DNA from: Caulobacteraceae bacterium
GTDB taxonomy: Bacteria > Pseudomonadota > Alphaproteobacteria > Caulobacterales > Caulobacteraceae
DNA length: 64,000 nucleotides
Assembly: GCA_965277425.1 (NCBI GenBank)
Contig: CBDICR010000005.1
Coordinates: forward strand, 450,316 to 514,315
Direction: 5' to 3'
Shown: piece after piece, positions 21,601-29,451 of the stretch
Layout: each line of letters opens with the position of its first letter
Numbering within the stretch: the first letter of the stretch is position 1
Notes under the pieces: model-generated
The model's input: only the letters and a program-made list of their open reading frames with translations
Databases searched by the model: none
What the model was told of the DNA's origin: nothing
Position numbers and translations under genes: made by a program

Positions 21601-22173
21601 TCAGGCCGGGGGCTGCTGGTCGTAGATCAGCTGCGCCGTATCAAAACCGAGGCTTTGGGCGCGGGCGACAAGGGTGGCCTTTTCGGCGGCCGGCATAACC
21701 GGATGGCGCGACATGATCCAGAGGTATTTCGAGCTCGGCGTGCTCATGATGCACCAGCTGTTGTCGTCGCCCCGGTCGACGATCCAATAGTCCTGGTGGA
21801 TGAATCCGCCGAAGAAGCCGATGCGGATCTTGGCGTCATGCACCGCATCGATGATCTGTCCCGCCGCGCGCCAGATCTTGGCCGGTCCCGAGGGCGATCC
21901 GACGCGGCAGGTCTGGACAACGGAATAGCCGCCGCCCTGCTGTTTCGACCAGTCGGAGGTGGGCGCCTGACAGTCCTTTTGCAGCTTGTTCGGCAGGCGG
22001 GCGATCTCGTACCAGCGACCGCTATAGACCTTGGGATCGATGGATTTGGTCGGTTGGGGCGCAGGGCCGGGCGCGGCGGTCGCCGCGGCCTGACCTGCAT
22101 AGCACGCCGCCAAAAAAGCGGCTGCAGCCCAAAGATGCGTGGTCTTCTTCGTCACTGGTTCGGCCCACTTCAA
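21601..22173 (-). CDS. blc: bacterial lipocalin Blc (outer-membrane lipoprotein)
   Basis: Signal peptide/lipobox-like N-terminus and the lipocalin SCR1 motif (YSGRWYEIARLP). Lies directly downstream of the diiron paralogs on the same strand, separated by a 65-bp gap. Confidence 0.75.
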   Translation of the reverse strand: MKWAEPVTKKTTHLWAAAAFLAACYAGQAAATAAPGPAPQPTKSIDPKVYSGRWYEIARLPNKLQKDCQAPTSDWSKQQGGGYSVVQTCRVGSPSGPAKIWRAAGQIIDAVHDAKIRIGFFGGFIHQDYWIVDRGDDNSWCIMSTPSSKYLWIMSRHPVMPAAEKATLVARAQSLGFDTAQLIYDQQPPA

Positions 22174-22238
22174 CTGGCTAACCCCTTTCCCCGCCGCGAG
22201 GTTGCGACGGGGAGGGCCGAAATGTCCAGAATCTTTGG

Positions 22239-23369
22239 CTATTCTGCGGCGAGAGCCGAGGGCGCGTTGGTCGAACGGTCCTTGAAGTTGATCGCCTGCA
22301 GGTACTTGATGCCGTCTTCGGCGATGTCGTCGCCGACCATGCGATCGCCCTCGGCCTTCAGCTCGTCCATGTCGACATACATGCCGTAGAAGGCGCGCGT
22401 GCGGTCGGTGATGATGCCGGCGTTGAGCAGGGTCTTGATGAGAACCCGGAAGATGTTGGTGGCTTCCTTCATGTCCTCGCGACGGGCCTCGTCGGTGGCC
22501 ATTTCCTGGAATTCCGCGATCACCTTGTCGGGATCGAGGCCGAATTCCTCATAGAGGTCACGCTGTTCGGAGGGCGCGACCAGGTTGAACAGCAGGGTCT
22601 GGAAGCAATGCGCCGCCCAGTCCTCGATGATGATGTGCTCTTCGGGATTCAGTTTCGGGATGGTCCGGTCGGCCCAGATCTTGCCGAACTTGTGGTGGAA
22701 GGCCTCGTCGGTCATCACCAGCTGCATCAGCTTGCGGCCGAGCGGATCGTTCAGCTTTTGATAGAAGGTGGCGAAGGCGCCCATGGCCAGGCCCTCGACC
22801 AGCATCTGCATGCCGATGATCTTCTTGTAGACCTCGGGCGAAGAGATGATCTCGACCAGGAGGTTCTGCAGCACCGGGCTGCAAGCGACCGGCTTGCCCC
22901 AGCGGGCCTTGATGTACTTGGCGAAGGCGGTGACGTGGCGGGCTTCTTCGCGGGTCTGGTTGGCGGCGTATTCCTGCGCCCCTTGGTCGTAGAGCACATG
23001 GCAGAGCGAGGCCGAAAGGTTCAGCGCGCCCTGTTCGCCGTGCAGGATCGAGGATAGGCTGCGCAGGGTCGACTGGTTGATGAAGCGAATGCGGTCCTTC
23101 GGATCGGACAGGATGTCGGAGACGTATTTGGTGTGCAGCGCGCCCACCATCTCTTCCGGCAGCAGCGCCTCGTTCTCCATGTCGAAGGGCTCGTCGAAGT
23201 CGATGTACTTCTTGTCCAGCGGATCCCAGAAGTGGTCGTGGGTGGCCGAGATGATCTTGTCGAACGCCGTCGAGCGGGCGTTGTAGCGATCAAGCTGCAG
23301 CATGGATTCGAAGTCGTCGGGCGCGACGGCTTCGTACATGGCGTCCTTGGTGATGTTGTGGTCGGTCAT
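22239..23369 (-). CDS. ferritin-like diiron-carboxylate protein, acyl-ACP desaturase/AurF-like (paralog 1)
   Basis: Two E...ExxH half-motifs (GEQGA...TREEARHVTAFAKYI and VEGLAMGAF...TDEAFHHKFG). TREEARH resembles the TAEENRH block of soluble acyl-ACP desaturases. About 75% identical to the adjacent paralog. Confidence 0.55.
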   Translation of the reverse strand: MTDHNITKDAMYEAVAPDDFESMLQLDRYNARSTAFDKIISATHDHFWDPLDKKYIDFDEPFDMENEALLPEEMVGALHTKYVSDILSDPKDRIRFINQSTLRSLSSILHGEQGALNLSASLCHVLYDQGAQEYAANQTREEARHVTAFAKYIKARWGKPVACSPVLQNLLVEIISSPEVYKKIIGMQMLVEGLAMGAFATFYQKLNDPLGRKLMQLVMTDEAFHHKFGKIWADRTIPKLNPEEHIIIEDWAAHCFQTLLFNLVAPSEQRDLYEEFGLDPDKVIAEFQEMATDEARREDMKEATNIFRVLIKTLLNAGIITDRTRAFYGMYVDMDELKAEGDRMVGDDIAEDGIKYLQAINFKDRSTNAPSALAAE

Positions 23370-23494
23370 CCGGGCGGCTCCCTAGAGGGCGCGGCGTGCG
23401 CCCAGACATTGGATTTCAGCAGCAAAATGTGACGCCCAACGTCGCCCGTCAAGAAAAATGACGGGGGCGTCACGAATCTTACAGGAGGTTAATC

Positions 23495-27833: not shown

Positions 27834-27883
27834 AGGCGGCTTTCGTCGCTCCCGCCTGGCGCGGGCGATCGCCGTCCTGAAGC

Positions 27884-28204
27884 TCAGTGCTGGCTTTCGG
27901 GCATCCGCACGACCAGGCCGTCAAGGGCGTCGGTGACCTTGATCTGGCAGGACAGGCGCGAATTGGGTTCGACCTGTTCGGCGAAGTCGAGCATGGACTC
28001 TTCCATGGCCGACATCGAGCCGGTCTTGTCGCGCCAGGCCTCGTCGACATAGACATGGCAGGTCGCGCAGGCGCAGGCGCCGCCGCAATCGGCATCGATG
28101 CCGGGAATATTGTTTTTGACCGCGCCTTCCATGACGGACAGCCCCGGCTTCACGTCGATGACGTGCTCGGTCCCGTCATGTTCGATATAGGTGATCTTCG
28201 TCAT
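27884..28204 (-). CDS. 2Fe-2S ferredoxin (adrenodoxin/putidaredoxin type)
   Basis: 106 aa with the Cys pattern [11 protein letters not shown]...C, characteristic of vertebrate-type [2Fe-2S] ferredoxins. Confidence 0.85.
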
Positions 28205-28221
28205 CTACGCCTCGCACACCC

Positions 28222-29451
28222 CTAGGCGGCGACCTCTTTCATGGAAATGGATGGATCGGCAAGCCTCTCGCGCGCGATGACGCGACGTGAACCGATCAAT
28301 TGACGGCCGCCCATGAATTCCGCCGGGGCGTTCACCGCCTCGACGGCCTGCACCCTGCCCTGGTTCAGATGGAAGACCGCGAAGTGGGCGTTGGCCGGAT
28401 CGCCGCGCACCAGGACCTCGTCGACATCGAAGGGCAGGCCGGCGAGCTGCATCTTCAGATCGTACTGATCCGACCAGTTCCACGGCACCTCGTGCGGCGG
28501 CGGCGGCCGGCCGGCGATGGCGCAGGCCGCCTGCTTGGCCTGCTCCAGCGCGCTGGGCACGCTCTCGGGGCGGAACTGGCGGCCATAGAGCGGCATGGGC
28601 CGCAGCGTCACGTCGCCGATGGCGAAAACCGATGCATCCGAGGTGCGGGCCGCCTCGTCGACGATGACGCCGACTGCGCAGTTCAGGCCGGCCTCGCGCG
28701 CCAGTTCGTCGTTGGGGATCGCCCCCACCCCGACCAGGACGACGTCGCAGGCGATCAATCGGCCATCGCCCAGGCGCACGCCGGCGACGCGGCCGTTCAC
28801 GCCCTCGAAACCGGTGATCTCGGCCCCGAGTTCGAAAACCACGCCCCGCGCCTCATGGTAGGATTTGAAGAAGCCGGAGAGGGTCGCGTTCGCCACCCTG
28901 GCCAGGACGCGAGGCTCGCGCTCGATGACCACGGCTTCGGCGCCCAAGGCGCGGGCGGAGGCCGCCACCTCCAGCCCGATATAGCCGCCGCCGATCACCG
29001 CCAGCCGCCGGCCGGGGCCAAGCTCGGCCTTCAGCGCCTCGGCGTCGGCGGCGCTGCGCAGCACGCGCACGCCATCGAGATTTGCGCCGTCGATATCCAG
29101 CCGCCGCGGCCGCGCCCCGGTGGCGAGGATGAGGATGTCGTAGGCGAGGTCTTCGCCCCGGCTCAGTCGCAGCCGGCCGGCGCCGCGATCGATCGCTTCG
29201 GCGCGCACGCCCAGGCGAAGGTCGATGCCGTGCTCGGCATAAAAGCTCTCCGGCTTCAGGGTCAGGGCGTCCTCGTCCGCCTCGCCCTTGAGCCAGGCCT
29301 TGGACAGCGGCGGCCGCTGATAGGGCGGGATCGGCTCCTCGCCGATCAGGGTGATCGGTCCGGCGAAGCCGTACTGGCGCAGATTGGCCGCGGCCATGCC
29401 CGCGCCGTGGCCCGCGCCGATCATGACGACCTTGGACGTTTCCTCACCCAT
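28222..29451 (-). CDS. FAD-dependent ferredoxin--NAD(P)+ reductase (putidaredoxin-reductase-like)
   Basis: Two dinucleotide-binding motifs (VVMIGAGHGAGMAA and RLAVIGGGYIGLEVAA). Lies 17 bp upstream of the ferredoxin gene on the same strand. Confidence 0.8.
   Translation of the reverse strand: MGEETSKVVMIGAGHGAGMAAANLRQYGFAGPITLIGEEPIPPYQRPPLSKAWLKGEADEDALTLKPESFYAEHGIDLRLGVRAEAIDRGAGRLRLSRGEDLAYDILILATGARPRRLDIDGANLDGVRVLRSAADAEALKAELGPGRRLAVIGGGYIGLEVAASARALGAEAVVIEREPRVLARVANATLSGFFKSYHEARGVVFELGAEITGFEGVNGRVAGVRLGDGRLIACDVVLVGVGAIPNDELAREAGLNCAVGVIVDEAARTSDASVFAIGDVTLRPMPLYGRQFRPESVPSALEQAKQAACAIAGRPPPPHEVPWNWSDQYDLKMQLAGLPFDVDEVLVRGDPANAHFAVFHLNQGRVQAVEAVNAPAEFMGGRQLIGSRRVIARERLADPSISMKEVAA

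Follow-up and report, generated by a model that had tools for sequence, protein, structure and literature searches.

The genome of a Caulobacteraceae bacterium (NCBI GenBank assembly GCA_965277425.1) encodes two related soluble diiron proteins side by side, with a lipocalin gene next to them and a ferredoxin and ferredoxin reductase pair nearby, and the locus raises the question of which of these genes work together and on what substrate. The 64,000-nucleotide stretch analysed here (contig CBDICR010000005.1, positions 450,316 to 514,315; hereafter the window) carries, all on the minus strand, the diiron genes DiFe1 (22239-23369, 376 amino acids) and DiFe2 (23495-24619, 374 amino acids), a Blc-like lipocalin lipoprotein gene (21601-22173), and the ferredoxin and reductase genes Fdx (27884-28204) and FdR (28222-29451), which lie 3.3 kb upstream of the diiron genes. 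These open reading frames, their distance and their common strand are as given in a first-pass annotation of the window, as is the lack of a P450 gene nearby; neither a P450 nor a Rieske gene was found in the whole 64 kb. We hold with moderate confidence that DiFe, Fdx and FdR form a three-component oxidation system, predicted from sequence to stand under one operator and to oxidise a hydrophobic, probably fatty-acyl substrate. The kind of system, in which a ferredoxin and a reductase serve a ferritin-like diiron oxygenase, is already known; as far as the available libraries show, the subfamily, the operator and the regulon make-up are new, and no description of them was found in the literature searched.

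One of the diiron genes, DiFe1, shares a palindrome with the ferredoxin pair. Side-by-side reading of DiFe upstream regions revealed an invariant TGACG-N4-CGTCA with A-rich and T-rich flanks (palindrome 1), which extends to approximately AAAgTGACG-N4-CGTCAyTTT. The exact core occurs twice in the window against 0.06 sites expected, and none of 100 shuffles reached two or more. One copy (23459-23472), which reads TGACGCCCCCGTCA on the gene strand, belongs to the promoter region of DiFe1 and follows the stop codon of DiFe2 by 22 nt. The other (29473-29486; TGACGCCGCCGTCA) lies in the FdR promoter region, 22 nt upstream of the FdR ATG and within the 88-bp region between fdR and a divergent vapB-like gene; the FdR open frame extends beyond its ATG at 29451 to a TTG at 29487. 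A genome scan returned at least 584 loci in relatives, of which the best 80 (1.29 Mb) were analysed by mapping the window proteins onto them. They contain 108 exact copies of palindrome 1: 86 are found at most 300 nt upstream of DiFe genes, in 78 of the 80 loci; 21 lie directly upstream of fdR, where all 20 testable loci carry the site within 120 nt; and one, inside the hpf coding sequence, is a chance match. Within the sampled neighbourhoods the palindrome is thus exclusive to DiFe and FdR, and its conservation there spans genera. Counted per gene copy, it precedes 83 of 92 DiFe genes and, even with one mismatch allowed, 1 of 78 blc genes. These counts provide the regulatory coupling expected of a three-component system, and co-regulation of DiFe1 and fdR-fdx by one factor through this common predicted operator is well supported.

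The coupling does not extend to DiFe2, nor does it make one operon, so that the tie drawn by the first-pass annotation between the ferredoxin pair and the diiron genes holds as a shared operator at DiFe1 and fdR. Two genes intervene, and the diiron genes and fdR-fdx are therefore separate transcription units: a gene for a 192-amino-acid protein without a Pfam, NCBIfam or PHROG match (24788-25366, minus strand), directly upstream of DiFe2, and a PAS/HisKA/HATPase histidine kinase gene on the opposite strand (25365-27833, plus strand; 822 amino acids). Both were omitted from the earlier annotation. FdR and Fdx, 17 bp apart, are probably co-transcribed. DiFe1 is the core orthologue, with 80-97% identity in all loci. 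DiFe2 finds a best match of at most about 75% identity in the 80 loci, is missing from the closest relative (locus L001, 97% identical) and, like the other DiFe2-type upstream copies (L004-L007, L013), does not carry palindrome 1; it is an extra copy specific to its lineage and has a promoter of its own. Across the relatives, one, two and three DiFe copies occur in 46, 10 and 1 loci, respectively.

Could palindrome 1 be a mere intrinsic terminator or repeat element with no regulatory role? It folds into a hairpin followed by T residues, a terminator scan listed both window copies as terminator-like, and the 23459-23472 copy comes after a stop codon and is followed by a T-run. However, across 107 copies the half-site never changes, whereas the loop does, and no compensatory variation was seen; in the window and in Caulobacter spp. 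alike, the palindrome also sits in divergent promoter regions, at places with no gene end; and only a few gene families, functionally coherent and spread over distant taxa, carry it. Taken together, these features argue for a protein-binding operator, and we find the purely structural explanation scarcely credible. The 23459-23472 copy may additionally terminate DiFe2, in whose 125-bp gap to DiFe1 this terminator-like palindrome stands beside the conserved promoter region that DiFe1 has of its own.

Other regulatory patterns were rare in the DiFe upstream regions. FixK/FNR boxes (TTGA-N6-TCAA) occur in only 9 of 79, and LexA, sigma-T and Fur-like patterns were essentially absent from the 79 regions examined. 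Upstream of Sneathiella-type genes we observed the variants TTACG-N4-CGTAA and TGGCG-N4-CGTCA. A RegA/PrrA/RegR box was considered for palindrome 1 and kept as a weak lead only: regBA is adjacent and the half-sites GTGAC/GTCAC loosely resemble GNGRC...GNCGC, but they are spaced differently, and RegA motifs in the literature are degenerate. The regA product scores as an ActR/PrrA equivalog (306 bits; cutoff 250), and in nearly all loci the cluster has a SenC/SCO1-like gene, regB and regA (18393-21112 in the window) at a distance of 0.5-3 kb. A second palindrome in the DiFe2 promoter region (24640-24654; GTGGACACTGATCAC) is the sole match in the window, with 0.04 expected, and overlaps a -10-like element. 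Related blocks (GTGGACAGTGTTCAC) follow palindrome 1 in the promoters of single-copy Caulobacter DiFe genes and are also present in DiFe2-type promoters; this second palindrome may be the site of a second regulator or an element overlapping the -10.

What, then, are the diiron proteins? DiFe1 and DiFe2 share 73% identity over a gap-free alignment (270/372) and diverge in residues 66-105 and 199-214; the paralogy proposed in the first-pass annotation is thus borne out, at slightly below the rough 75% and with lengths on either side of the 375 amino acids that it gave. The E...ExxH signatures that it noticed were found in both. Each protein has the same six ligands (E112, E142-x-x-H145, E192, E222-x-x-H225), and in an alignment of 34 diverse members Q138, E142, R144, H145, Y152, E222 and H225 are invariant, while E112 and E192 are at least 90% conserved. 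A four-helix bundle, two E...ExxH motifs and a site of four carboxylates and two histidines place the proteins in the ferritin-like diiron oxygenase/oxidase (FDO) superfamily. The narrower assignment to acyl-ACP desaturases (ACP, acyl carrier protein) or AurF-like enzymes did not survive profile searches. FA_desaturase_2 (PF03405) gave no match whatever in Pfam, and AurF (PF11583) gave 26.3 and 25.1 bits, both under the gathering threshold of 29.6; one homologue (P0121) reaches 29.7, just at the cutoff, and precomputed PF11583 assignments exist for many homologues. Ald_deCOase, the family of aldehyde-deformylating oxygenase (ADO; PF11266), scored 22.7 against a cutoff of 28 in Pfam and 23.4 against 222.65 for TIGR04059, and no NCBIfam family came near its cutoff.

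The closest solved relative by profile is cyanobacterial ADO, which was the best PDB-sequence match of the family profile (1.2e-7), with all four ligand-bearing motifs aligned. ADO acts on fatty aldehydes and has the same 4-Glu/2-His site. It differs from DiFe in length (~230 against 376 amino acids, DiFe having N- and C-terminal extensions of ~90 and ~70 residues), DiFe scores lie far under the ADO cutoffs, and DiFe shows no linkage to acyl-ACP reductase or biotin genes. The closest functional analogue of the proposed system is the soluble stearoyl-ACP delta-9 desaturase (PF03405), likewise a soluble diiron four-helix bundle that takes electrons from ferredoxin/FNR and acts on acyl-ACP.

We also considered that DiFe could be an AurF/CmlI-like N-oxygenase or a CylC-like halogenase, acting on a small molecule or amine in secondary metabolism. 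The motifs HxxDExxH and QExxH define the AurF-type N-oxygenase and CylC halogenase subfamilies (PMC12101540). In DiFe the position of the third histidine of the 3 His/4 carboxylate AurF site, H223 of AurF, is held by V218 (V218-M-T-D221-E222-A-F-H225; family consensus LVMTDEAFHH), and the first motif is E141-E142-A-R-H145 (EEARH) instead of QExxH. Compared through these published motif definitions, the 3 His/3 Glu site of the dimetal-carboxylate halogenases CylC/NocO (QExxH, HxxDExxH), which leaves a coordination position open, contrasts with 2 His/4 Glu in DiFe (EEARH, VMTDEAFH). Together with the sub-threshold AurF scores, the lack of an aromatic-amine pathway context, and the position of the gene in the core genome with no biosynthetic cluster around it, this makes such a function very improbable.

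Single-sequence AF2 prediction gave a pLDDT of 36.8, and an alignment-based model was used in its place. Foldseek searches of the PDB yielded weak matches only (best E 2.5e-4), with R2lox as joint top structural match. That match, and the fact that the family has no known substrate, would suit a non-enzymatic or protective protein, such as an R2lox-like ligand binder, an iron store, or an Fdx/FdR-fed scavenger of O2 or peroxide, a role that we judge improbable. The model and the lack of a signal peptide indicate that DiFe1 and DiFe2 are cytoplasmic proteins of R2/AurF-like fold, predicted to be catalytically competent, and by their sequences they are catalytic-type ferritin-like diiron oxygenases with a canonical 4 Glu/2 His site, forming an uncharacterised subfamily of their own. 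An exhaustive search of 1.84 billion cluster representatives found 1,172 family representatives at E ≤ 1e-3 and 128 at E ≤ 1e-30, while a word-indexed search found more than 5,600 family clusters at 90% identity. Members occur in Caulobacteraceae, Sneathiella, Myxococcota and many metagenomes, and their source annotations go no further than 'ferritin-like domain-containing protein' or hypothetical. The literature searched, on ferritin-like and lipocalin proteins of Caulobacter, AurF and diiron enzymes, held no paper that characterises a member, and our searches found no solved structure nearer than the remote diiron relatives ADO, AurF and R2lox.

Clues to the substrate come from relatives, several of which are fusion proteins. 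One (P0137, 44% identical) combines FAAL (AMP-binding and DIP2-type domains), a TubC-like docking segment and the diiron domain, with a stand-alone ACP gene directly after it. For three others (P0127, P0272 and P0275), identities among themselves or with the window proteins are 48-58%; each overlaps the stop codon of the FAAL gene that precedes it, and they are accompanied by stand-alone ACP and condensation-domain genes, C39-peptidase ABC exporters, a Rieske oxygenase, a sulfotransferase and a luciferase-like monooxygenase. The AurF-like FDOs CylC and NocO tailor ACP-tethered fatty acyl chains loaded by FAAL, with the same genomic logic as this FAAL-coupled sister clade of DiFe (PMC8406957, PMC12101540), and BioE, an ADO-like FDO, acts on fatty acyl-CoA/ACP thioesters and cleaves the acyl chain (PMC12704756). 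From the gene context of the relatives and the nearest solved fold we infer a fatty-acyl substrate: by analogy, and more tentatively than the enzyme class, the DiFe substrate would most probably be a fatty-acyl chain carried on ACP, CoA or a lipid. The FAAL/ACP-coupled relatives also hint at new chemistry, a C-H functionalisation of fatty acyl chains that could be of interest in biocatalysis. In three further homologues (P0125, P0149 and P0150) an N-terminal domain of ~200 amino acids matches phrog_308, a GNAT-like 'internal virion protein' (3.4e-21); kinship of the P0125 domain with a FemAB-like neighbour in Sneathiella was considered and rejected, the two being unrelated.

Fdx is an adrenodoxin/putidaredoxin-type [2Fe-2S] ferredoxin (Fer2, 4.4e-12) whose best PDB matches are Rhodopseudomonas palustris PuxB (3hui, 1.6e-43) and Rhodobacter capsulatus FdVI (1e9m, 1e-39), and it is also near putidaredoxin. 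FdR is an FAD-dependent ferredoxin-NAD(+) reductase (Pyr_redox_2, 3.6e-69; Reductase_C, 8.5e-29) of the ArR, PuR and putidaredoxin reductase type, with best PDB matches to 3lxd, 3fg2 and 1q1r (E 1e-92 to 1e-85). On these matches the pair is a class I chain, running from NADH through FAD to [2Fe-2S], that supplies oxygenases. ADO, for its part, is reduced by a ferredoxin and a reductase. In the proposed mechanism, one transcription factor would switch DiFe1 and FdR-Fdx together, since both carry the same operator. NAD(P)H would reduce the FAD of FdR, FdR would reduce the [2Fe-2S] cluster of Fdx, and Fdx would pass two electrons per turnover to the diiron centre, as in ADO and the acyl-ACP desaturases; for this last transfer, argued by analogy, our confidence is moderate. 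The reduced diiron centre would activate O2 and might then, more tentatively, hydroxylate or desaturate the hydrophobic substrate. An anonymous protein family is thereby assigned a putative dedicated chain of ferredoxin and reductase, together with a conserved operator and a candidate for its regulator, and becomes a testable three-component oxygenase.

The operator also reaches beyond the family. A metagenome collection scanned for AAAGTGACGNNNNCGTCAYTTT contained at least 120 loci, and we tallied the neighbours of the site on the 56 contigs with a GC content of at least 0.58 among the matches listed. The neighbour was a DiFe homologue on 22 contigs, a Coq4-family gene (PF05019) on six, fdR on five, a CYP107-like P450 gene on five, a membrane FA_desaturase gene (PF00487) on two, a TetR gene on two, and an alpha/beta-hydrolase gene with a divergent acyl-CoA dehydrogenase on one; 13 were unclassified, five of them with the site at the contig end. 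Below this GC content, the matches listed included another six Coq4 loci and another two DiFe loci. Some DiFe loci (L105, L142, L203) also contain three additional P450 genes, as well as Hsp70-like genes, each with its own site. In these three loci, which are from outside Caulobacteraceae, a CYP107-like P450 gene and a truncated Hsp70-like gene cluster with DiFe, and several operator copies lie between them. Identities of the site-associated DiFe homologues span 86% to 30%, so that the link between operator and DiFe is old and extends well beyond Caulobacteraceae.

The Coq4-family genes, which carry the HDxxH...E motif, have the extended operator 30-90 nt upstream (L099, L116, L119, L149, L162, L169, L172, L184, L190, L194, L198 and L204; e.g. 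L116:1443-2261). Their predicted membership of the regulon points to a link with quinone biosynthesis or to another bacterial role of Coq4. Membrane desaturase genes have the operator immediately upstream (L096:244-1236, L166:402-1391 and L166:1583-2125); in L166, an HxlR-type regulator gene is divergent to the desaturase gene. The two TetR genes (L175:2682-3296 and L185:882-1499; TetR_N and TetR_C_15) are orthologous and 55% identical, and have a perfect extended operator 56-70 nt upstream. An operator at the gene's own promoter is the pattern of an autoregulated repressor, which makes TetR the best candidate for the cognate factor; from these two instances, that factor could be an autoregulated, lipid- or quinone-responsive repressor of the TetR family.

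A parallel exists in Pseudomonas, where DesT is a TetR repressor of desCB and a palindromic operator controls a lipid-modifying, O2-dependent enzyme together with an oxidoreductase. The likeness lies in an operator common to the oxygenase, its electron-transfer partner and an apparently autoregulated TetR gene. The differences are that DiFe is soluble and ferritin-like, that the regulon here adds P450 and Coq4-like genes, and that the candidate TetR comes from two metagenome contigs and does not have DesT among its top PDB matches. It is conceivable, and put forward tentatively, that AAAGTGACG-N4-CGTCAYTTT marks an undescribed TetR regulon, widely conserved in Alphaproteobacteria and with two members in the window, in which a new class of soluble diiron fatty-acyl desaturase/hydroxylase, membrane desaturases, CYP107-like P450s and Coq4-like proteins share Fdx/FdR for O2-dependent remodelling of membrane lipids or quinones. 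On such a reading the Fdx/FdR module would resemble the mitochondrial Yah1/Arh1-dependent system of coenzyme Q biosynthesis, and the presence of the operator before Coq4-like, P450 and desaturase genes opens a way to study the alphaproteobacterial coordination of O2-dependent modification of lipids or quinones. An identical 22-mer (AAAGTGACGGATCCGTCACTTT, …GGATCC…) was also found upstream of an ABC-transporter ATPase gene on ~20 gut-type contigs with a GC content of 0.47-0.56 (L092, L100, L102, L106 and ~16 others); these loci were set aside as an unrelated system with a look-alike palindrome.

Several observations weigh against a three-component system acting on fatty acyl chains. All 80 relatives' loci are from Caulobacteraceae and are not phylogenetically independent; Fdx lies within 9 kb upstream of DiFe in 18 of 41 loci, and the linkage of DiFe to Fdx/FdR has been lost in many Caulobacter loci. 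The Sneathiella and Myxococcota homologues (~45-50% identical) have no lipocalin, ferredoxin or FAAL gene nearby, and the window contains no FAAL or ACP gene. The Coq4-like genes suit a quinone theme as well as a fatty-acid theme, and an orthologue of the candidate TetR, of which there are two instances only, is absent from the window and from all 80 loci. Finally, P450 genes with palindrome 1 upstream occur in eight metagenome loci among the matches listed, three of them adjoining DiFe.

These P450 genes suggest that the Fdx/FdR chain may serve several oxygenases of the regulon, or P450 only. They lead to the main rival explanation, in which Fdx/FdR is the redox chain of a P450 or of a housekeeping Fe-S function encoded elsewhere, and DiFe merely belongs to the regulon and draws on another donor. 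PuxB, FdVI, PuR and putidaredoxin reductase, the nearest matches of Fdx and FdR, are classical P450 or housekeeping partners, and the pair lies beside sdh genes in the ori-proximal core genome, where its linkage to DiFe has been lost in the Caulobacter loci just mentioned. Set against this are the exclusivity of the operator to DiFe and FdR in the sampled neighbourhoods, a window that holds no P450, and the established use of a ferredoxin and a reductase by ferritin-like diiron oxygenases, ADO and the acyl-ACP desaturases among them. We regard this rival as rather unlikely, and as less probable than electron transfer from Fdx to DiFe within a three-component system.

The lipocalin next to DiFe1 invites a different grouping, in which the diiron enzyme would make or modify a lipid that the lipocalin binds or transports. 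Its product has a full Lipocalin_2 domain (6.5e-33) and a lipobox (L21-A-A-C24), and is thus a lipocalin with a lipoprotein signal; at 84 bits against the NCBIfam Blc cutoff of 267 it is Blc-like and not a strict Blc orthologue. A Blc gene lies within 1.5 kb downstream of DiFe in 59 of 69 loci, and its copy number varies in the same region as that of DiFe (none, one and two copies in 8, 48 and 13 loci, respectively). The gap in the window is 65 bp, and the GC-rich hairpin within it (22189-22212, minus strand), although orthologous to the terminators of relatives, has lost the T-tail, so that some read-through from DiFe1 into blc is possible. On the other hand, 63 of 79 relatives have a strong GC-rich hairpin with a T-rich tail after the last DiFe stop codon, compared with 5 of 320 control coding windows, and the operator is all but absent upstream of blc. 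The adjacency proposed in the first-pass annotation is therefore real, and the operon is not established; blc is probably a separate or only partly coupled transcription unit. Of the diiron-diiron-lipocalin triad that it proposed to look for in relatives, the pairing of DiFe with Blc recurs, and DiFe2 has no close orthologue in the 80 loci.

Synteny offers little help here. MmcB, an SOS-regulated nuclease that is unrelated (PMC9578287), is found downstream of DiFe in 59 of 63 loci and is at least as syntenic as Blc, so that adjacency within Caulobacteraceae says little about function and mainly reflects inherited gene order. An alphaproteobacterial SOS box (GAAC-N7-GAAC on the gene strand) at 21561-21575, 12 nt upstream of the mmcB start (21549), marks mmcB as a transcription unit of its own downstream of blc and fits its reported SOS regulation. 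Blc is not found beside the Sneathiella, Myxococcota or FAAL-clade homologues, the pairing being seen in Caulobacteraceae alone, and the lipobox implies that Blc leaves the cytoplasm, while DiFe stays in it. For these reasons we regard Blc as a neighbour that is conserved, not as an established part of the system, and a functional lipid module of DiFe and Blc as unlikely.

The remaining features of the window concern its layout. It represents ori-proximal core genome (dnaA, dnaN, recF, gyrB, sdhCDAB, regBA, mmcB), and an Rfam scan of 21000-30200 found no RNA family. The start codon of the 192-amino-acid protein gene is back to back with that of the divergent PAS kinase gene. This small gene accompanies DiFe in Phenylobacterium-type loci, and a Sir2 deacetylase gene takes its place in Caulobacter spp., where the divergent gene upstream of DiFe was considered as a regulator and rejected once recognised as this deacetylase. 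Divergent from fdR, a vapB-like antitoxin gene (29540-29773, plus strand) and a PIN-domain toxin gene (29770-30141, plus strand) form a vapBC module that is inserted between sdhB and fdR and missing in most related loci. The sdh genes are themselves interrupted (30148-35751), with a gene for a 683-amino-acid SPFH/Band-7 protein (30999-33050) between sdhB (30148-30942) and sdhA (33150-35213).

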